Assembly: GCA_041489155.1 (NCBI GenBank)
Contig: JBGPQP010000001.1
Span: forward strand, 64,001-128,000
DNA length: 64,000 bases
DNA from: Candidatus Aenigmatarchaeota archaeon
GTDB taxonomy: Archaea; Aenigmatarchaeota; Aenigmatarchaeia; QMZP01; QMZT01
Direction of reading: 5' to 3'
In this document: piece after piece, positions 29,933 to 38,364 of the stretch
Position numbering within the stretch: position 1 is the first letter of the stretch
Layout: each line of letters opens with the position of its first letter
Made by a program: the position numbers and the translations under genes
Notes under the pieces: generated by a model
Databases searched by the model: none
The model's input: only the letters and a program-made list of their open reading frames with translations
What the model was told of the DNA's origin: nothing

Positions 29933-30103
29933 TCACCTTTATTTCCACTGGAGTTTTGTTTTTTGTTTTAAAGCTAAACTTTACGTATACGTATACGTAT
30001 TATAACGATGTTATAAGTTTCCACAGGAAATTAAAATATAGTTCCACAGGAAATTGGGGTGTGCGAGGCAAAAACATTTAAACCCCCGTTTCATATGGAA
30101 AAC
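29933..30103. promoter_or_regulatory. Putative replication origin (ORB cluster) upstream of cdc6
   Basis: Minus-strand ORB AACTCCAGTGGAAATAAAGGTGA (29933-29955), AT-rich spacer, plus-strand GTTTCCACAGGAAAT (30017) and GTTCCACAGGAAATTGGGG (30041), minus-strand TTCCATATGAAACGGGGG (about 30083-30100). Confidence 0.85.
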
Positions 30104-31312
30104 ATGGCCCAAGTTTCCCTCAATAATATTTTCCAAGATTATCTGGAAAAGAAGCCCATTTTCAAGAAAAAAGACATGCTAACAAGTCAGTTCACACCGG
30201 ACACCATACCACACAGGGATAAACAGATCAATCATATCGGTCTCATCCTGGCGCCGGTGCTCCGCGGCGAAAAACCATCCAACATATTCATTTACGGAAA
30301 GACAGGCACCGGCAAGTCTCTCTGCGTCCAGCACACGGTTTCAAGGCTGCTGGAAACGGCCAAAAAAAACGAGGGCGAAAACATCAAGGTAATCTACATT
30401 AACTGCAAGATGAGCAAGGTCTCCGATACCGAGTACAGGATGCTTTCGCAGCTTATACTAAATTTTGGCGTCAGTGTCCCTTTCACGGGCCTGCCGACAA
30501 ACCAACTTTACCAACAGTTTTTCAGCCTGCTTGACGCCAAAAAACAGAGCATCATCCTGGTCCTTGACGAGATAGATGCGCTGATTAACAAAATAGGAGA
30601 CGGCGTGCTTTACAACCTCACAAGGGTCAATCAGGACCTGAAGAACGCAAAACTCACGCTTGTCGGCATATCCAACAACATATCCTTCATAAACGATCTT
30701 GACCCGCGGGTCAAATCCTCGCTGTCGGAAGAGGAAATAGTTTTTCCGCCCTACAACGCAAACGAGCTTAAGGACATACTAACCGAAAGGGTAGGTTCCG
30801 CCTTCAATGAGGGAACGATTACTCCATCCGTTATAGCGAAGTGCGCGGCCCTGGCAGCGCAGGAGCACGGCGACGCAAGGAAGGCGCTCGATCTGCTGAG
30901 GGTTGCCGGAGAGACAGCAGAGAGAATGAGCAACAACATGGTGGCCGAAGAGCACGTTGACCAGGCAGAAAGGAGGCTGGACATGGACAAGACGACAGAA
31001 ATAATAAAAAACCAGCCAAAACAATCCCAATGCGTCCTTATTGCGATACTAAAACTCGCGAAGAACGGCAACAGCGGCATACAGACAGGCGACATATACG
31101 ACGTGTACGTAGACGTCTGCAGGAATAACAATCTCAAGCCGCTGACCCAGAGAAGGGTGTCAGACCTAATATCCGAACTCGACATGTTCGGGATAGTGAA
31201 CGCCAAGGTGATATCCAAAGGAAGATACGGAAGGACAAGGGAAATAAAGACGGACCTTTCGAAAGAAACCACGGAAAAGATAGAAAAGATGTTCAGCGGC
31301 GAGTTTATTTGA
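30104..31312 (+). CDS. cdc6: Orc1/Cdc6 replication initiator
   Basis: PHRDKQI, YGKTGTGKS, VLDEID, LDPRVKSSL, HGDARKALDLLR, SKGRYGRTR wing. Confidence 0.97.
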   Translation: MAQVSLNNIFQDYLEKKPIFKKKDMLTSQFTPDTIPHRDKQINHIGLILAPVLRGEKPSNIFIYGKTGTGKSLCVQHTVSRLLETAKKNEGENIKVIYINCKMSKVSDTEYRMLSQLILNFGVSVPFTGLPTNQLYQQFFSLLDAKKQSIILVLDEIDALINKIGDGVLYNLTRVNQDLKNAKLTLVGISNNISFINDLDPRVKSSLSEEEIVFPPYNANELKDILTERVGSAFNEGTITPSVIAKCAALAAQEHGDARKALDLLRVAGETAERMSNNMVAEEHVDQAERRLDMDKTTEIIKNQPKQSQCVLIAILKLAKNGNSGIQTGDIYDVYVDVCRNNNLKPLTQRRVSDLISELDMFGIVNAKVISKGRYGRTREIKTDLSKETTEKIEKMFSGEFI

Positions 31313-31321
31313 ATTAAGGTT

Positions 31322-32209
31322 ATGGCCAAGCTTATGAACAAAAAAGACATAATCGATTTGTTTCTTAAAAACGGCGTCATGCTCGCGCCGGATGAACTGG
31401 AAAACATCAGCGAGCAGAACTACATGCAGGTGCTCGAGAAAAAGCTTGGCGAGACGAATGACGAGATATTGATCGCCAAACAGAGCAGCGGTAAAATTTC
31501 ATGCGGCGATTTCATAAAATTATGCAACAGGAAATTCGAGTTCCTCAGGGAGATCCTGCTTAAAAAAACAGACGCCGTGTCGATAAACAAGGGAAGGAAG
31601 GTTTTTGCCGAGGCGACAATCATAGGAAGGGTGAAGGAAAGGAACGCAAACGGATTCGTGCTCGAAGATGTAACGGGAGAGACAGAAGTAGTGAGTGAAA
31701 ACAACGACATAAAAACAGGCGATATTGTCGGTTTGCGCGGCTTTTTCAAGGAGAATCGTTTTTTCCCGAACCAAATCATATGGCCCGACATCCCGCTCGA
31801 GAATAATCCAAGGCCACCCGGCATAAAAATCACGCTCACAACTAGGGCAAAAGACAGCATGGCCGGCCTGATAGTATGCTCTTCCGGCGGCAAGGCTAGC
31901 AACATGATATCCGGGTTCGGAAGGCTCGGATCCATAAAAATAAAAAAGCATGGCAGCGAAATTCATCTGCTCGCCTTTTCGCCTGAAAAGGAGATGAGCG
32001 AGGATGATACTGTCAAAACGCTCAAGAAAAGGCAGATATCAGATGACGGCATCGCTGACAACCTGATAGCCGAGATACCAGGAATTTTCTGGCTTTTCAA
32101 CAACGGCAAAAACTGGACCAAAAATTACAGGGGCGTTGTCGTAATATCAAGCGATTCAGGAAGTTTTGCGGAATATGACAACGGGGAAGTCCACTTCGCG
32201 GGCTTGTAG
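31322..32209 (+). CDS. Truncated, inactivated homolog of PolD small subunit DP1
   Basis: DFIKLCNRKFEFLREIL helix, OB fold (IIGRV, LEDVTGE, DIVGLRG, IIWPDIP), C-terminal LKKR..D.LIAEIPGIF..YRGVVVIS; phosphoesterase metal ligands absent. Confidence 0.72.
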   Translation: MAKLMNKKDIIDLFLKNGVMLAPDELENISEQNYMQVLEKKLGETNDEILIAKQSSGKISCGDFIKLCNRKFEFLREILLKKTDAVSINKGRKVFAEATIIGRVKERNANGFVLEDVTGETEVVSENNDIKTGDIVGLRGFFKENRFFPNQIIWPDIPLENNPRPPGIKITLTTRAKDSMAGLIVCSSGGKASNMISGFGRLGSIKIKKHGSEIHLLAFSPEKEMSEDDTVKTLKKRQISDDGIADNLIAEIPGIFWLFNNGKNWTKNYRGVVVISSDSGSFAEYDNGEVHFAGL

Positions 32210-32245
32210 AGTTGAAGCTTTAATATAAATCCACCAAGAATTAAT

Positions 32246-32920
32246 ATGCTCAAAATACTCGTCATCGCGGACATACATGGGGAGTTCGAGAAGTTCTCAA
32301 AAATCATAGACAAGCTCAGCGGCAGGGATTTTGACCTGGTGATCTGTCCCGGTGACTTTACCGACATATTCAATATACCTGAAGGCTATTCCCAGATGGA
32401 CATAGCCGAACTGATAGTCCAGAAACTGCTCTCGCTGGGCAAGCCTCTCTTCTGCATACCTGGCAACCACGAACCTTATGAAATAATAGACGTGTTCGAT
32501 GAATACAACGTGAACCTGCATGAAAGAACGAGGAAGTTCAACGATTTCGAGTTCGTGGGCTTCGGCGGGGCAGCAACACCATTCAACACCAAGTTCGAGC
32601 CCACGGATGAGGAAATAAAACAGGCGCTTGAGAGAAAGACCAAGGAAATAAAAGGCAAATTTATACTGGTCACGCACAACCCGCCGCTTGGTACCAACTT
32701 GGACAAGGTTGAAACAGGAGAACATGTCGGCTCGAAAGCGATTCGCGAATTCATAGAGCAGCGAAAGCCCCTGCTTGCGATATCCGCCCACATACACGAG
32801 GCAGGAGGCACGGACAAGCTTGGAAGCACGACCATATTCTATCCGGGCGTTGCCTACGAAGGGTATTACGGCCTTGTTGAGATAGGTGATGAAATAAAAT
32901 GCGAGATAAAAAAGATATGA
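32246..32920 (+). CDS. Calcineurin-like metallophosphoesterase (Icc-related)
   Basis: ADIHG, GDFT, PGNHE, THNPP, HVGS, AHIHE. Confidence 0.92.
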   Translation: MLKILVIADIHGEFEKFSKIIDKLSGRDFDLVICPGDFTDIFNIPEGYSQMDIAELIVQKLLSLGKPLFCIPGNHEPYEIIDVFDEYNVNLHERTRKFNDFEFVGFGGAATPFNTKFEPTDEEIKQALERKTKEIKGKFILVTHNPPLGTNLDKVETGEHVGSKAIREFIEQRKPLLAISAHIHEAGGTDKLGSTTIFYPGVAYEGYYGLVEIGDEIKCEIKKI

Positions 32921-32931
32921 TTCCCTTTCTA

Positions 32932-33651
32932 TCAGACAATGTCTTTCAGCCTGTTCATTATCTCTTCTATTGACTCGATCCTGCACAAAGCCACGGGTAT
33001 GCTCTCGACTTCAGCGATGTTCATGGCAACTTCATTCACCTTGTCTATGCCGTGAAGCACGACCAGACCGGGCTGCAGACCGGTGAGCTTGATGGCAACC
33101 ATTGGCGTTTTTCCGGTAGTCACGCCCGTGAAGAGAAGGGCGCGTTGTGTCGTAGTTCCATAAAGCTGGATCAGCTGGTTGTGTGAAAGCTCCAGTATTG
33201 CCTTCACAGAGTCTACAATGGTGTAACCGTATATTTCCCTGTCAATGGGGGCACGTTTTGTTATTATGCCTGCGTTTATTTTCCTGCAGAAATCCTCTAC
33301 AGGGACGCCGCTAGAAAATTCGCGTATGTCTATTATCGCCTTGGAAAGGTTCGAAGTGCTGGCGACCTGGGCGAAGGTCTTGAGAACATTTCCGCCCCTT
33401 TTGATGTCAAGACCTATCAGCGAATTGACGTACCTCTTTATGACGTTTATGCCTGGCGATTTCCTTCTGCCTGATTCATAGTCGGATATGACAGATGACG
33501 TAATGCCAATGTACTCGGCGAGCCTCTTCTGCGAAAAACCGAAGATTACCCTCCATTTCTTCAGGACCTGCTCGGGTTTTTCGGACAGTATGATTTCTCC
33601 TGTTATATCCTTTGCTAGCCTGTCTCTTGAAAGGTTAAATTCGTCAACCAT
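32932..33651 (-). CDS. Archaeal XRE-HTH transcriptional regulator (COG1709-like)
   Basis: ITGEIILS, LKKWR, SVISDYESGRRKSPG, IYGYTIVDS, RALLFTGVTTGKTPMVAIK. Confidence 0.85.
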   Translation of the reverse strand: MVDEFNLSRDRLAKDITGEIILSEKPEQVLKKWRVIFGFSQKRLAEYIGITSSVISDYESGRRKSPGINVIKRYVNSLIGLDIKRGGNVLKTFAQVASTSNLSKAIIDIREFSSGVPVEDFCRKINAGIITKRAPIDREIYGYTIVDSVKAILELSHNQLIQLYGTTTQRALLFTGVTTGKTPMVAIKLTGLQPGLVVLHGIDKVNEVAMNIAEVESIPVALCRIESIEEIMNRLKDIV

Positions 33652-33801
33652 AGAATAAATTTACGTCAATTATTTAAATATATATATGTTTTGTACGTCT
33701 GATGTGCGTATGTTGTTTAATCGTGTTTGCGGTCTTGGCTTGTTTAAACAAATGTTTATGTTTAAACTCAACTTCTTAAGCCGCTGTTTGAATTTCTAAA
33801 A

Positions 33802-35028
33802 ATGTTCCTGGAGATTTTGCTTTTTGTTCTCCTCGGAATCGTGCTTGGTTTCTTCACAGGGCTCGCGCCAGGCATACATCCCAACACAATATTTGCCTTT
33901 ACGCTTTCCCTTTCGTTTCTGTTTATCGGTTTTCCGATTCAGGCAATACTGGCCTTCGTTGTTTCACTGGCGGTTTCGAATACATTTTTTGATTTCATCC
34001 CATCAATATTTTTCGGAGCACCAGAGGAAGATTCGGCGATTTCGGTTCTTCCTGGCCACAGGATGCTGCTGAAAGGGAGAGGATACGAAGCAATTTTCCT
34101 CACTGCGATGGGAGGGCTGGGGGTCATGTTTCTCACGGTTATGAGCCTGCCATTCCTTTTCGTCCTTCTGCCGTCGATCTACTTTGTTATAAAACCCGTG
34201 ATCCACATCATCCTCATAACAGCTGTTTTATGGATGGTCTGGATGGAAAGAGGAACGAAAAAACGATTGGCAGCGGCTTCAATATTTCTCGCATCCGGCA
34301 TTTTCGGTTTCATTACACTCAATTCTTTGCCTTCGGACGGAGCGCTGTTCCCCGCCCTCACAGGCCTTTTCGGCCTGAGCACGATCCTTACAAGCATCAT
34401 GGAGAAGACAAGGATACCGCCGCAGAAGATACGGAGCGAAGTTCACGGAAACTGGCTAAAGGGGAGTCTGGCAGGCTGGATTGCCGGCATGATTTCCGGG
34501 CTGCTTCCTGGTCTGGGTTCTTCTCAGGCAGGCATAATTGCAGCCCAAGCGCTAAAAGCCAAGATGAAGGAGTTCCTCATCGCCCTTGGCGGCATAAACA
34601 CGTCCAACATGTTTTTCACGTTCATTGTCTTCTATCTGCTCGGTAAAACGAGATCCGGCGCTGTATGGATGATTTCACAGATTATGGACCAGTTCACAGT
34701 GCAGGACATGGGCATCATTGTCGTGGTCGGAGTGATTACCGCGCTTGTTTCCGCAGTAGCCACCATAAAAGCAGCCAGACTGCTTCTGGGTTTCATGAGA
34801 AAACTAAACTACACCAAGACTATGATAATCACGGCCTGCGTGCTTTCTGTAATGATCGTGGCTTTATCAGGGCCGCTGGGAGTTATGATTTCGGTAACAG
34901 GAACCTTTCTGGGTCTGTTGGCGGTGTCAACAGGCATCAAAAGAACGAATCTCATGGGGTTTTTAATATTGCCAACCATCCTTTACTTCTCCGGCTTCAA
35001 CCCGTTCTTTTCAGGAATATTGTGGTAA
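33802..35028 (+). CDS. TctA-like (DUF112) membrane protein
   Basis: TGLAPGIHPN, DFIPSIFFGAP, SVLPGHRMLLKGRG; many TM helices. Confidence 0.85.
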   Translation: MFLEILLFVLLGIVLGFFTGLAPGIHPNTIFAFTLSLSFLFIGFPIQAILAFVVSLAVSNTFFDFIPSIFFGAPEEDSAISVLPGHRMLLKGRGYEAIFLTAMGGLGVMFLTVMSLPFLFVLLPSIYFVIKPVIHIILITAVLWMVWMERGTKKRLAAASIFLASGIFGFITLNSLPSDGALFPALTGLFGLSTILTSIMEKTRIPPQKIRSEVHGNWLKGSLAGWIAGMISGLLPGLGSSQAGIIAAQALKAKMKEFLIALGGINTSNMFFTFIVFYLLGKTRSGAVWMISQIMDQFTVQDMGIIVVVGVITALVSAVATIKAARLLLGFMRKLNYTKTMIITACVLSVMIVALSGPLGVMISVTGTFLGLLAVSTGIKRTNLMGFLILPTILYFSGFNPFFSGILW

Positions 35029-35225
35029 CCCCTTCATTTCCTGTGAAACATGAGCAAAACAAGCTTATATAGGACATGTTTTAAAATATAATTTCCATAA
35101 GAAATGAAGGTTGTTTCACCTTCACCGTGAAATTACCAGCGTTGAAAATGAAGGTATCCTTCGTGAACTTCATGCAAAACTCCACAGGAAACAGAGGGGG
35201 TTCATACTTCATGGTGAAGTTCATT
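35028..35225. promoter_or_regulatory. Second ORB cluster (origin-like element)
   Basis: Minus-strand GTTTCACAGGAAATGAAGGGGT (35028-35049), AT-rich gap, plus-strand TTTCCATAAGAAATGAAGG (35092) and ACTCCACAGGAAACAGAGGGGG (35179-35200). Confidence 0.8.
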
Positions 35226-35255
35226 TGCTCGGCATGCTCAAGCCGAACCTTATAA

Positions 35256-37895
35256 TCAGATTACAATGCTGCTGGCAGGTCCTTGCGGCGAAGAGAACAG
35301 CAGTAAACCACCGCATTCGCAGGCTCCGCTTAGCGGAGGCATCGCATATGTTTTGCAGCATTTTTTGCAGATGAAGCCGTTAAAGTCTTTCATGGAAACT
35401 TCCTTCGCTTCAATCGCTTTTCCGCCATTTCCGTTCAATATGCCGAACAAATCGATCTGCTTGCCTTTGCCAAGAAGCTCGGTCTTTGAAATGCCTAGCG
35501 CATCGAATATTCGTTCGAGCGGAGGAAGCAGCTGGTTTTCTATGTAGTACTTCGAGTCTATTTCCAGCCCCCGTTCCATGACGTAAACCGGGTCTTCCGC
35601 CCTTTTTGACAGGAGATCGAGGCCTTTTATTATCACATAACCAATCCTGTCCCCGACGCCTGGCGCTTCAGCCGGCGTGCGTTTCTTTATCTTTTTCACG
35701 AGTTCTGCATGCGGCTGCATGCCGTCATAGCGTTCCGCTCCTTTGGTCATGGTCTTGGTTATTATCAGCTTCTGTATGGGTATCCCGCCAGTGACCATTT
35801 CATCAGTAACGTTTTTGAAATATTTCACAGCCTGCTTGATGTCATTTGCCTTGAGTATGGTTTCCAAAATCTTCTCTATTGTTTCTGATGTAAGATCGCA
35901 CCAGTCTCTCCGGACGGTTTCAATACCCTTCGTTTCTATGCTTTCAACCCAGCTCCCGTTGACGTAATCGAAACGCCATGCAGCATAGCGTTTTTTTGTG
36001 AGAGGCAGGAAGCGCTTGAAAATTTTCTCGAAATCAAGTTCCATCACGCCCTTCAGGCCTGACGTAACGTTTTTGGCCACTTCGTCTCCGGCTTTCTTCA
36101 TCTCATCGAGATCCTCGAAAGGCACCTTGACCATCACGGAATCCGTGTCACCGTAAACGACCCTGTAGCCGAACTTCTCCTCTATGTATTCTTTCGTCTT
36201 CTTTATGGTTTCCCTTCCGAATCCGGTTATCGAGTTGGCTATTTCAAGAGAGTAGATTTTCGCTCTGGGGTAGCCGAAATAGCCATAGAAGGCGTTGGCC
36301 ATTATCTTGAGGGCGAACTGCTTCGCTTTCAGTTCACGTATGCGTTCAGGCTTCGGCTCCTTCTTCATTTCCCTTTTCACGTTTTGCCTCTCCTTCATAA
36401 GATGCTCCAGTATCCGTGGTATTATCCCCTTCCTGACGTTTTCTGGCACGAATCTCGCCCCGGACGGCGACTGCACGGCGCCCTCGATTTCTCCGTCCAG
36501 AAGCAAAGTCGTCGGGCACATGTTATACGTCCGGATGAGCGAAGGGTACATGGACTTGAAATCAAGCACAAGGACGCTTGAGTGCAGGCCCTTGTCAGGT
36601 TCTATAACGAAACCGCCTTTCAATTCGACCTTTCTGGCGTTTTCCCGCTTGGCGACTTCCATGTTGTCCGACTTGCATGGAATTATGAAGTTCTCTTTAT
36701 TGAACTCCCTCAGTATAAGGTTTTCGATCCTCGTGGTCTCGCCGGAATCAAGTATGTCCTGCAGTAGGATTCCTGAAATCTTGGAAAGAGCAATGTACTT
36801 GTCCAGCAGGTTGAGTTTCAGCAAAAGGTTCATCGCGATAACGGAGTCCTTTTTCGCGTAATTCACCAGAAGCCTGAATTTTTCCTGGTTGCCCTTCCAG
36901 AGCTTTTCTATCTCCGATTTCTTCACAGGTTCCTTTTCCTCGCCGAGCAGCTCAAGACCCACGGTGTTCAGGTCATATCTCTTGAGGGAGAAGTCACGTT
37001 TGACAATTTCAAAGGAATCAACTATTACCCTCCCGGATATGTTTATCTTGAATCTGCTCATCATCTGGTGTTTCGTAACGGGTTTTGTGCACCTACCGAA
37101 ACTCGCGAATACCCCTCTTTCCTTCATTCTGTCGAGTATGTAGGGTATGTCGAAGTTATTGACGTTGAAGCCGGTGATGATGTCAGGGTCATAGTCCATT
37201 ATTACGTCTATCAGTCCCCTGAGCATTTCACTTTCGTCCTCAAAAAAGGTAACGTCCTTGTCGGACCTCGTGCTCAGCACCATTTCCTTCCTCCCCTTGT
37301 GCGCATCGCTGAAAACGAGCGAAATCATTATTATCGGGTCCTTCCTGCCGTCAGGCATTTCCCCCTCTTTAAGCGAAACGCACTCTATGTCAAGTGCCAG
37401 ATATTTCAGCGGCGCGATGCCATCCTTGTCGGCATGCCTGAATTCCTTTATTTTTATCCTTTTTTCCGTTTTCACGGTGTTCGTCGGGACGCCGTTCGTG
37501 TCTTCAACTTCCAGCCAGTCCATGCCCTTTAGGCCGAAGTCCGCCATGAACCTGTATTTGAAAGGAATGTCAGCCTCGAAGACACGGAAGCCTCTTGACA
37601 TGAGCTTTTCCCTCAGCTCAGGCGTCTTTGCAGGATTTTTTATTACGACTTTCCAGACATCCTTCATCTCCGTCTGGTAGCCGAGCGGAAGGAATTTTTT
37701 CACCTTCTCCAGACGCACGAAATTCGCTTCGTTCTTTACATGATCCTCGATATTGTTTCCGAGCACGTAGAAATAGGGCTCGAAATTCTCGTAGAAACCG
37801 CATACGGTTTCGCCATTTTCAGTCTTGCCGAAAAGCCTTATTATCGGCTTTTCGTCGACCAGCGTGTAGTCCACGTCGAGTATCTGGAAAAGCAT
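35256..37895 (-). CDS. polB: Family B DNA polymerase with C-terminal DP2-like Zn finger
   Basis: ExoI LDIEC, ExoII NVNNFD, ExoIII YAKKD; DFKSMYPS, KIMANAFYG, YGDTDS, KKRYA; PIP-like QIDLF; FICKKC-x-PPLSGACECGG tail. Confidence 0.95.
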   Translation of the reverse strand: MLFQILDVDYTLVDEKPIIRLFGKTENGETVCGFYENFEPYFYVLGNNIEDHVKNEANFVRLEKVKKFLPLGYQTEMKDVWKVVIKNPAKTPELREKLMSRGFRVFEADIPFKYRFMADFGLKGMDWLEVEDTNGVPTNTVKTEKRIKIKEFRHADKDGIAPLKYLALDIECVSLKEGEMPDGRKDPIIMISLVFSDAHKGRKEMVLSTRSDKDVTFFEDESEMLRGLIDVIMDYDPDIITGFNVNNFDIPYILDRMKERGVFASFGRCTKPVTKHQMMSRFKINISGRVIVDSFEIVKRDFSLKRYDLNTVGLELLGEEKEPVKKSEIEKLWKGNQEKFRLLVNYAKKDSVIAMNLLLKLNLLDKYIALSKISGILLQDILDSGETTRIENLILREFNKENFIIPCKSDNMEVAKRENARKVELKGGFVIEPDKGLHSSVLVLDFKSMYPSLIRTYNMCPTTLLLDGEIEGAVQSPSGARFVPENVRKGIIPRILEHLMKERQNVKREMKKEPKPERIRELKAKQFALKIMANAFYGYFGYPRAKIYSLEIANSITGFGRETIKKTKEYIEEKFGYRVVYGDTDSVMVKVPFEDLDEMKKAGDEVAKNVTSGLKGVMELDFEKIFKRFLPLTKKRYAAWRFDYVNGSWVESIETKGIETVRRDWCDLTSETIEKILETILKANDIKQAVKYFKNVTDEMVTGGIPIQKLIITKTMTKGAERYDGMQPHAELVKKIKKRTPAEAPGVGDRIGYVIIKGLDLLSKRAEDPVYVMERGLEIDSKYYIENQLLPPLERIFDALGISKTELLGKGKQIDLFGILNGNGGKAIEAKEVSMKDFNGFICKKCCKTYAMPPLSGACECGGLLLFSSPQGPASSIVI

Positions 37896-38034
37896 ATTGA
37901 GATTTGCCTGCGCAATATTAAAACCATTTCGTTATCCAAAAGTATACTTTGAAAAATGGATTTCACAGGACCGAAATTTTTAATAAAACGCTGGGTTTTT
38001 AAACCAATTGCCACAATAATCTTTATTGGTCGCT

Positions 38035-38364
38035 ATGAAAATGGATCCGAAACACATGGAGAAAATGATGAAGCAGATGGGCATGAATGTCACAAACATC
38101 GACGCAGAAGAGGTCGTGATTCGCACGCCCGATAAGGACATCATTATAACGAATCCCCAGGTCTCGAAAATTAAGGCAATGGGGCAGGAGACCTTCCAGA
38201 TTTCAGGCGACGTCAGCGAGAGGGAAAGAAGCGACGAGGACGTCAGCGAAGACGACGTCGAGATGGTCGCAGAACAGGCAGGCGTTTCCAAAGAGGAAGC
38301 AAGGGAAATGCTGCGCGAGACAGGCGACATCGCCGAGGCTATAATGCGGCTCAAAAAGGAATAG
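38035..38364 (+). CDS. nac: Nascent polypeptide-associated complex protein
   Basis: MMKQMGM, DAEEVVI, GQETFQISG, UBA tail GDIAEAIM. Confidence 0.93.
   Translation: MKMDPKHMEKMMKQMGMNVTNIDAEEVVIRTPDKDIIITNPQVSKIKAMGQETFQISGDVSERERSDEDVSEDDVEMVAEQAGVSKEEAREMLRETGDIAEAIMRLKKE

Follow-up and report, generated by a model that had tools for sequence, protein, structure and literature searches.

The window, a 64-kb stretch of DNA from an Aenigmatarchaeota (DPANN) archaeon (hereafter the host; MAG 89.65% complete, 39 contigs), very probably (about 0.82) carries a replicase locus in which PolD has given way to a family B DNA polymerase (PolB) with a Zn-III tail, accompanied by a catalytically dead DP1 as the second subunit. 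The original prediction had proposed such a PolB + dead-DP1 heterodimer, with the DP1 homologue directly after cdc6 and about 3 kb from PolB. Both genes were found at these positions, and sequence comparison and modelling support the heterodimer through the type of finger, the predicted dead B-subunit fold, the absence of DP2 and the co-occurrence of both features. It had left open whether the pairing is unreported; the arrangement of a PolB-DP2 finger with a dead DP1 is already published for Aenigmatarchaeota (PMC7544198, 2020; PMC12680538, 2025). The features concerned are the following.

29943..30055, + strand: three ORB-like boxes (TTCCACNGGAR), just 5′ of orc1/cdc6, not part of the polymerase
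30059..31312, + strand: orc1/cdc6 replication initiator, 417 aa (NF001625, 509 bits, above cut-off; Cdc6_C and Cdc6_lid)
31322..32209, + strand: DP1/B-subunit homologue, shrunken (295 aa) and predicted to be catalytically dead (NF003118, P. abyssi and T. kodakarensis DP1 profiles, AF2, Foldseek)
31322..31447, + strand: its putative N-terminal helical domain, aa 1-42, resembling the DP1 N-terminus
31613..31780, + strand: its OB fold, aa 98-153 (model strands E98-153; DP1 profile matches)
31814..32206, + strand: its phosphodiesterase remnant, aa 165-295, ~130 aa, with no metal ligands
32246..32920, + strand: intact metallophosphoesterase, 224 aa (PF00149, E 8.6e-22; PF14582, E 2.5e-14)
35256..37895, − strand: PolB, 879 aa, with a C-terminal zinc finger apparently derived from DP2 (PF03104, PF00136, alignment)
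36960..37586, − strand: 3′-5′ exonuclease domain of PolB, aa 104-312, motifs intact (PF03104, E 2.3e-43)
35499..36764, − strand: polymerase domain, aa 378-799, motifs A, B and C intact (PF00136, E 8.5e-111)
35445..35459, − strand: PIP-like motif Q813-I-D-L-F817, between thumb and finger (from conservation)
35259..35420, − strand: PolB C-terminal domain, aa 826-879, comprising linker, C4 zinc finger and short tail (alignments, hhalign)
35313-35369, − strand: C4 finger cysteines C843, C846, C859 and C861 (invariant in alignments)

The true start of orc1/cdc6 may be an ATG about 12 codons further in. The boxes upstream of it resemble the ORB consensus. Where 0.30 matches to this box would be expected, the 64-kb window contains four, three of them at 29943..30055, and the box stands 5′ of cdc6 in nine of 12 family-level loci (a count that includes the window's own); the boxes at 29943..30055 are probably Orc1 binding sites or an origin element. 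The DP1-like ORF starts 10 bases past the orc1/cdc6 stop, a place conserved among the relatives' loci, and in Thermococcales the DP1 locus adjoins orc1/cdc6 likewise. A gap of 3047 bases separates the DP1-like gene from PolB, which lies on the opposite strand. GINS and PCNA genes were also found in the host genome.

In 41 aligned homologues of PolB, the exonuclease residues D169/E171 and N244..F248-D249 were invariant, as were Y346..D350 just past the PF03104 domain and the polymerase residues D445..S452, K530..G538 and Y581-S586 (including D583/D585). Within the PIP-like motif, which possibly contacts PCNA, Q813 was invariant in this alignment and K812 and L816 nearly so, and its position matches that of QSSLDAFV in the host's second PolB. 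The best PDB sequence match in phmmer searches was the catalytic subunit of human Pol delta (E 3e-122), nearly tied with Thermococcales PolB (E 1.5e-119); since the latter scores almost equally, the match does not single out Pol delta as the sister of this PolB. The PolB homologues bear Aenigmarchaeota names, and judged by its sequence the enzyme probably belongs to the published B6-aenigma1 type.

PolB ends in the tail ...FICKKCCKTYAMPPLSGACECGG..., in which C843, C846, C859 and C861 were invariant in the 41 aligned homologues and also in 17 PolB sequences spanning the phylum sample, C847 being variable in the former. The best NCBIfam matches of the isolated tail were DP2 large-subunit models, the match falling on the finger at the C-terminus of these models (NF003103, E 0.001-0.0035). 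Comparison of the 17 PolB tails with five DP2 C-termini in hhalign gave 98.1% (E 1.2e-13, 41 columns), limited to the finger and the following strand, and the PolB-tail profile matched Zn-III in all five complete DP2 proteins (E 1e-10 to 1e-13). The host's second PolB gave no match to this profile, and neither a Cys tail nor a finger was seen on inspection of its sequence. By these comparisons, the PolB finger is homologous to DP2 Zn-III. With ~54 aa, the tail has one C4 module; CysA and CysB modules with a helical bundle between them are absent, and sequence comparison found neither the helical bundle of the DP2 CTD nor the C-terminal PIP box of DP2. Two arginines of the Zn-III loop (KxRRxP) enter the DP1 groove according to Raia 2019 (PMC6355029). 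Related genomes keep this RR pair in their DP2, and most PolB tails have it too (YRRxP); it is replaced in the window's PolB (YAMPP) and in the ~30 closest of 40 aligned homologues. Because the pair is lost in the host family, docking here may differ from the PolD model.

For the DP1-like protein, aa 52-164 matched the OB part only of the DP1 model NF003118 (E 9e-15), and a profile search also found the DP1 proteins of P. abyssi and T. kodakarensis (E 1e-7). When its AF2 model was searched with Foldseek, the best 49 matches were all DP1 or eukaryotic B-subunits. VIA aligned model residues 48-295 with residues 196-615 of the P. abyssi DP1 chain (6t8h_A; Z 18.5, rmsd 3.4 Å, 242 residues aligned), and eukaryotic B-subunits gave VIA Z values of 12-17. 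Judged by model and motifs, the protein has the entire OB+PDE fold of a B-subunit but is catalytically dead. Its N-terminal domain, modelled as three helices, carries a conserved MxKKxIxxxFLKxGxLLSPEE...NY that can be aligned with canonical DP1 N-termini, and a few VIA rows obtained with the whole-protein model (6knb_A, 8kg6_N, 7pfo_A) begin at model residue 4-7. The OB fold contains an invariant GR..GF..ED.TGE. Alignment with canonical DP1 revealed large internal deletions that remove half of the phosphodiesterase domain, and none of the five nuclease motifs (DxH, GD, GNH(D/E), H, GHxH) was present; in a weak HMMER stretch, IPGIFWLFNNGKNW lines up with the DP1 strand that bears GHVH. These motifs are likewise absent throughout the DP1-like proteins of the host order, partly kept in 349-393-aa forms from other orders, and all present in the canonical DP1 of the DP2-bearing family. 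The original prediction had described a DP2-like four-cysteine finger, an OB fold without nuclease ligands and intact PolB exonuclease motifs, and all three descriptions agree with the data: the first with the hhalign, HMM and NCBIfam matches to Zn-III, the second with the NF003118 match, the model and the motif alignment, and the third with the residues invariant in 41 homologues.

In the architecture we propose, the catalytic subunit would be a proofreading PolB that retained only the last DP2 zinc finger (Zn-III) in its ~54-aa tail, and the second subunit would be the former PolD small subunit DP1, deprived of its nuclease and reduced to the N-terminal helical domain, OB fold and phosphodiesterase stub. 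By analogy with Zn-III in PolD, and with the way Pol alpha and epsilon seat their Cys-rich tails on their B-subunits, the finger would occupy the groove that the OB fold of the dead DP1 forms with its phosphodiesterase remnant. Zn-III is reported to dock in the acidic groove that DP1 has between OB and PDE, and DP1 has nanomolar affinity for a 20-aa Zn-III peptide (Raia 2019, PMC6355029). The DP1-like protein would serve as a scaffold whose N-terminal domain may tether the polymerase to GINS/CMG, as the DP1 N-terminus does in Thermococcus; in T. kodakarensis, this N-terminus is described as binding the C-terminus of Gins51 (PMC9023282). Proofreading would be left to PolB's own exonuclease, and the PIP-like motif would contact PCNA. 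Two observations count against docking in the PolD style, namely the replacement of the RR pair in the window's PolB and a tail without the helical bundle that also touches DP1 in PolD.

We infer that the window's DP1-like protein and PolB bind each other. Aenigmatarchaeota DP1 is reported to bind PolB-DP2CTD and not other PolBs, based on AlphaFold3 and yeast two-hybrid (PMC12680538, 2025, Nat Ecol Evol). Among the matches listed, 121 genomes had both genes, 76 outside the host order and 45 inside. Outside, 68 of these 76 genomes have PolB after the DP1-like gene, on the same strand and no more than 4.5 kb away; in the host order the tandem is broken and the two genes are not co-transcribed. 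In the window itself, the 3-kb distance and opposite strands count against the pairing. It is unlikely, all the same, that the dead DP1 and the finger PolB of the host family do not bind, with the former acting as a scaffold linked to GINS/CMG or primase and the finger serving a DNA or primase contact. The lost RR docking pair and the broken tandem would fit this explanation, as would the contact between DP2-CTD and PriL described for Heimdallarchaeia, with a similar one cited for Thermococcus (PMC12680538). It is opposed by the four cysteines, PPL.G.C.CGG and tail, all invariant or nearly so in the host family, by the invariant residues that persist in the phosphodiesterase remnant although catalysis is lost, by the location of both genes within 8 kb in 39 of the 45 host-order genomes (among the matches listed), and by the published two-hybrid assay, which supports binding at phylum level (PMC12680538).

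Next to the presumed PolB-DP1 pair, the intact metallophosphoesterase gene lies directly 3′ of the DP1-like gene in all 11 family-level relatives and occurs also in 12 of 17 loci taken from other DP2-less relatives. It is a conserved neighbour, and a link to the polymerase is unproven. We consider it improbable that the host family goes further beyond the published exemplar, with its ~130-aa stub, lost RR pair and broken tandem, in that the metallophosphoesterase works as a third, trans-acting replicase nuclease or the dead DP1 has switched partner. Four points may be unreported: the reduction of the phosphodiesterase domain to ~130 aa, the loss of the RR docking pair in the finger loop of the host family, the broken DP1-PolB tandem in the host order, and the intact metallophosphoesterase gene as a conserved neighbour.

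With every catalytic motif lost, half of the phosphodiesterase domain deleted and no Pfam match, the 295-aa gene might be taken for a decaying, functionless relic of DP1. This is very hard to reconcile with an intact ORF of steady length (~290-310 aa) and 24 invariant columns over 32 homologues with identity down to 37%, with a DP1-type gene in 182 of the 201 genomes of the phylum sample, with a confident AF2 model (pLDDT 85.8, pTM 0.77) and with the conserved position after orc1/cdc6.

Searches of the host genome (89.65% complete) with PF03833 and TIGR00354 gave no match for DP2, and none of the 41 genomes of the host order (incomplete MAGs, of which 21 reach 90% completeness or more) had one above cut-off. 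Full DP2 was found in just eight of the 201 genomes, all from one family, which carries a full-length DP1 of 472-494 aa (three copies read). The finger profile matched in 193 of the 201. A further search for DP1-like genes in the host genome returned only a 76-aa generic OB match. A separate intact DP1/DP2 and the co-occurrence across archaeal genomes had been named as points to check together with the proposed heterodimer: no such DP1/DP2 was found in the host genome or order, and the finger PolB and the DP1-type gene co-occur in the phylum sample, in tandem in most other orders. That DP2 and an active DP1 are hidden in the unassembled tenth of this MAG of 39 contigs, the 295-aa gene being an extra paralogue, is barely credible given the absence of DP2 from the host order, its restriction to one family, the lack of a second, full-length DP1 match in any host-order genome and the same DP2 absence reported for Aenigmatarchaeota in 2020 (PMC7544198) and 2025 (PMC12680538).

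The preferred pairing of a finger-tailed PolB with a dead DP1 is closest to the system of Kazlauskas et al. 2020 (PMC7544198), who described B6-aenigma1 PolB, inactive DP1 and DP2 loss in Aenigmarchaeota. The B6-aenigma1 pair ('Aenigma_GB_GCA_002789635-like') shares with the window a proofreading PolB with one Zn-III-like C4 motif, an inactive DP1, a genome without DP2 and homologues labelled with the same phylum. In the published exemplar, a 336-aa DP1 lies directly 5′ of the 887-aa PolB of the same contig (Table S4 of PMC7544198), whereas in the window a DP1 of 295 aa is separated by 3 kb from a PolB on the other strand, and the RR pair is lost. PolB3-DP2CTD + DP1 of Baldrarchaeia (PMC12680538) is similar in that DP2 is missing, DP1 is kept and PolB is fused to a DP2CTD. 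The CTD of Baldrarchaeia is described as full length and resembling DP2 and eukaryotic CTDs, whereas that of Aenigmatarchaeota is described as degenerate and shorter, with a different predicted structure (PMC12680538).

With archaeal PolD (P. abyssi, PDB 6T8H, 6HMS), the window system shares the OB/PDE architecture of the small subunit (Z 18.5, on the model), probably along with its N-terminal domain, and a finger homologous to Zn-III by sequence. Unlike PolD, it has no catalytic subunit with a double-psi beta-barrel, its DP1 has lost the nuclease ligands and half of the PDE domain, and its PolB tail has neither the helical bundle of the DP2 CTD nor a C-terminal PIP box like that of DP2. Across the window and its relatives, the small subunit forms a natural reduction series from ~490 aa and active, through 349-393 aa with partial motifs, to ~295 aa with none, which, together with the missing RR contact, could define how small a B-subunit scaffold can be and which docking determinants suffice.

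A PolB with a Cys-rich tail and a dead DP1 homologue is also found in eukaryotic Pol alpha, delta, epsilon and zeta (PDB 4Y97, 5VBN, 6TNY). The eukaryotic CTDs differ in having CysA and CysB with a helical bundle, where the window tail has one metal site, and the B-subunit chains compared have 392-573 residues against ~295 aa in the window. Eukaryotic replicases are built in this way, from a DP2-tailed PolB and a dead DP1, and an archaeal lineage that made this swap shows that no factors specific to eukaryotes are needed for it. As this was argued in 2020 and supported by binding assays in 2025, the window is a further case rather than a discovery.

The gene for the DP1-like protein, a homologue of the small subunit of the archaeal replicase PolD (DP1-DP2), starts 10 bases past the stop codon of orc1/cdc6, where the original prediction had placed it, and the family B polymerase (PolB) is encoded nearby on the opposite strand. 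The genes of this locus, with the databases supporting them, are:

30059-31312, forward strand: orc1/cdc6 (Pfam, NCBIfam)
31322-32209, forward strand: 295-aa DP1-like ORF (NCBIfam DP1 model NF003118)
32246-32920, forward strand: 224-aa metallophosphoesterase (Pfam Metallophos and Metallophos_3)
32932-33651, reverse strand: XRE-type HTH protein (Pfam, NCBIfam)
33802-35028, forward strand: TctA-family membrane protein (Pfam, NCBIfam)
35256-37895, reverse strand: family B polymerase, 879 aa (Pfam, NCBIfam)
38026-38364, forward strand: NAC (Pfam, NCBIfam)

The block of cdc6, DP1-like, metallophosphoesterase and HTH genes is common to the window and all 11 family-level relatives, and the gene order cdc6, DP1-like, PolB was found in several of the fetched loci of relatives. 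The HTH, TctA and NAC genes also recur near cdc6, the DP1-like gene and PolB in many fetched loci of the phylum sample, indicating that the whole neighbourhood is old and not the polymerase pair alone. Just upstream of orc1/cdc6, three ORB-like boxes (TTCCACNGGAR) lie within 113 bases (29943-30055), with four matches in the whole window against 0.30 expected. Such a box precedes cdc6 in 9 of the 12 family-level loci (the window's own counted), and two fetched loci of the window's order (L034 and L037) instead have two boxes between the 3' end of PolB and the TctA gene. The boxes probably form either an origin or a site for Orc1 autoregulation. The listed orc1/cdc6 start is a GTG 4 bases past the last box (window 30059-30100), and the real start may be the in-frame ATG 12 codons downstream (MENMAQ...).

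The 295-aa protein has no Pfam match. Against the DP1 model NF003118 it aligns over residues 52-164, which correspond to the OB part of the model (E 9e-15), and a profile of its homologues retrieved the DP1 proteins of P. abyssi and T. kodakarensis from the PDB over the OB region (E about 1e-7), as expected from the OB fold originally predicted. The alignment of 32 homologues of about 290-310 aa has 24 invariant columns. With an AF2 model of the protein (pLDDT 85.8, pTM 0.77), the top 49 Foldseek hits were all DP1 or eukaryotic B-subunits, the first being P. abyssi DP1 (E 2.8e-13). VIA-align superimposed the model on 6t8h_A with a Z of 18.5 and an rmsd of 3.4 Å over 242 aligned residues, residues 48-295 of the model covering chain residues 196-615; eukaryotic B-subunits gave Z values of 12-17 and unrelated OB folds Z <=11 over about 72 residues. 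The Foldseek and VIA-align results thus indicate that both domains of the DP1-like protein are present, in compacted form.

The loss of the nuclease motifs was followed by aligning the protein with its DP1 counterparts in 20 related loci and by Pfam scans. DP1 of the DP2-bearing family is 472-494 aa long and carries SDLHIGS, GDLxDG, GNHD and GHLH. In several orders without DP2 the protein is 349-393 aa long, in some cases with DxH, GD and GHxH but without GNH, and all three intermediate forms scanned (360, 391 and 393 aa) matched Pfam Metallophos models. The forms of the window's order, about 295-311 aa, contain none of the metal-ligand motifs, in agreement with the missing nuclease ligands of the original prediction; the two scanned had no Pfam match, as was the case for the window's own. 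Five loci of other DP2-less orders (L024, L025, L026, L029 and L031) encode DP1-like proteins of 360-393 aa with DxH and GD, mostly also GHxH, and without GNH(D/E). The 360-393-aa forms are an intermediate step from active DP1 to the window's stub.

PolB was aligned with 40 homologues of 857-920 aa; where a source is named, the label is almost always Aenigmarchaeota or Aenigmatarchaeota. No variation was seen in the exonuclease residues D169/E171, N244..D249 and Y346/D350, predicted to be intact, in the polymerase positions D445..S452, K530..G538 and Y581-S586, or in the tail cysteines C843, C846, C859 and C861; an extra C847 is variable. The best NCBIfam matches of the isolated tail were DP2 large-subunit models at the last zinc finger (E 0.001-0.0035). 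A tail alignment from 17 genomes of the phylum sample was run in hhalign against the C-terminal regions of five complete DP2 sequences encoded in related genomes, giving a probability of 98.1% (E 1.2e-13, 41 columns). An HMM of the tails found the last DP2 finger (Zn-III) in all five DP2 proteins (E 1e-10 to 1e-13), which bears out the DP2-like four-cysteine finger. This HMM did not match the second PolB of the window's genome (contig C7), whose C-terminus contains no cysteines and has a PIP-like motif, QSSLDAFV. The DP2 match of the PolB tail is limited to the finger and the following strand and, unlike DP2, the tail has neither the helical bundle nor the terminal PIP box. A QxxLF motif before the finger (QIDLF in the window's PolB) is conserved and a PCNA gene is present in the genome, which together suggest clamp binding by PolB. 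In some relatives the tail match falls in open frames of 1317-1730 aa, not about 900 aa (genome:contig G132:C96, G186:C6, G122:C2, G090:C4, G059:C67 and G028:C16), and the PolB genes there may contain inteins or be fusions.

A separate intact DP1 or DP2 was not found in the window's genome (1.13 Mb, 39 contigs, 89.65% complete): PF03833 and TIGR00354 detected no DP2, and the sole other match to the DP1 model was a generic OB fold of 76 aa. The DP2 cut-off was reached in none of the 41 genomes of the window's order and in 8 of the 201 genomes of the phylum-level sample, all eight belonging to one family. Apart from two fragments at contig ends, the weak DP2 matches are confined to profile positions around 990-1070; nearly all of them fall in frames of about 874-931 aa and correspond to the PolB tails. 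The two DP2 fragments (G110:C64 and G181:C78) each lie at the end of a short contig in a family otherwise without DP2, and one of the two genomes also has the tandem, that is, the DP1-like gene and then PolB on the same strand; these fragments may reflect mis-binning or rare retention of PolD.

Across the phylum sample, a DP1-type gene is present in 182 of 201 genomes and a match to the PolB tail profile in 193 of 201, consistent with the predicted partnership. The tail matches are weaker in the DP2-bearing family (E 1e-8 to 1e-12), and in the five DP2 proteins fetched from it they sit on DP2's own finger. Linkage was counted, among the matches listed, in the 121 genomes with both genes located. 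Outside the window's order, the DP1-like gene is followed by PolB on one strand within <=4.5 kb in 68 of 76 genomes; the rest have the two genes otherwise arranged within 8 kb (4) or on different contigs (4). Inside the order, the two genes lie within 8 kb in a non-tandem arrangement in 39 of 45 genomes and on different contigs in 6. An in-situ exchange of DP2 for PolB in a cdc6-DP1-DP2 operon would fit the order cdc6, DP1-like, PolB, but it is not supported, since in the single DP2-bearing family all six genomes with both positions listed have DP1 on one contig and DP2 on another.

The metallophosphoesterase directly follows the dead DP1 gene in all 11 family-level relatives, and its motifs (DIHGE, GDFTD, GNHE and AHIHE) are intact. 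Of 17 loci fetched from relatives without DP2, 12 contain it, and a search of the 201 genomes gave matches with E no worse than 1e-10 in 153; in the DP2-bearing family only 1 of 8 genomes has a match, a weak one. We rejected the idea that it represents the nuclease half of DP1, now encoded as a separate gene, since the DP1 model did not match it in the genome search, its closest solved relative is Aquifex aq_1956 and not DP1, matches are absent or weak in several DP2-less families, and its Atlas neighbour clusters (feature-based leads, not alignments) are labelled Altarchaeota and Bacteria; the same four lines gave no link to the polymerase.

In PolD, Zn-III sits in an acidic groove of DP1 at the interface of the OB and phosphodiesterase (PDE) domains via a KxRRxP loop, as described by Raia et al. 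2019 (PMC6355029), who also cite a nanomolar affinity for a 20-aa Zn-III peptide. YRRxP is kept in DP2 of the related family and in most PolB tails. The window's PolB has YAMPP, and the two arginines are also missing in roughly the 30 closest of the 40 aligned homologues. Several lineages with an equally reduced DP1 retain them; the loss is therefore specific to the window's lineage, and docking in this family may differ in detail from that in PolD. We infer binding of the window's pair from homology, conservation, linkage and published assays. The DP1 N-terminus is reported to bind the Gins51 C-terminus (PMC9023282) and a GINS gene is present in the window's genome (contig C4), suggesting that the apparently retained N-terminal domain of the DP1-like protein would tether the polymerase to the helicase.

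The observation behind the original prediction is thus confirmed and its interpretation, a polymerase of PolB and dead DP1, is supported. Kazlauskas et al. 2020 (PMC7544198) reported that DP2 is missing from most Aenigmarchaeota, defined a group of inactive DP1 proteins that takes its name from GCA_002789635, and proposed that a B6 PolB replaced DP2. Their Supplementary Table S4 gives for GCA_002789635 a 336-aa DP1 and an 887-aa B6 PolB on one contig, 60 bases apart, so the DP1-PolB tandem is implicit in their data. The terms 'operon', 'neighbo-' and 'adjacent' are absent from the main text of the 2020 paper, and the accessions RLJ06873, RLJ07219 and OIN85950 and the word 'aenigma1' did not turn up in the part of its supplement that was covered; the supplements and the figshare neighbourhood file of PMC12680538 may bear on gene order. 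The latter, a 2025 Nat Ecol Evol paper, reported from AlphaFold3 and yeast two-hybrid that DP1 binds PolB-DP2CTD and not other PolBs, and described the Aenigmatarchaeota CTD as degenerate and shorter. The system of a PolB with a DP2 finger and an inactive DP1 is already published, and what remains of interest are four local features: the extremely reduced B-subunit, the missing arginine contact in the window's family, the broken tandem in its order and the conserved metallophosphoesterase neighbour.
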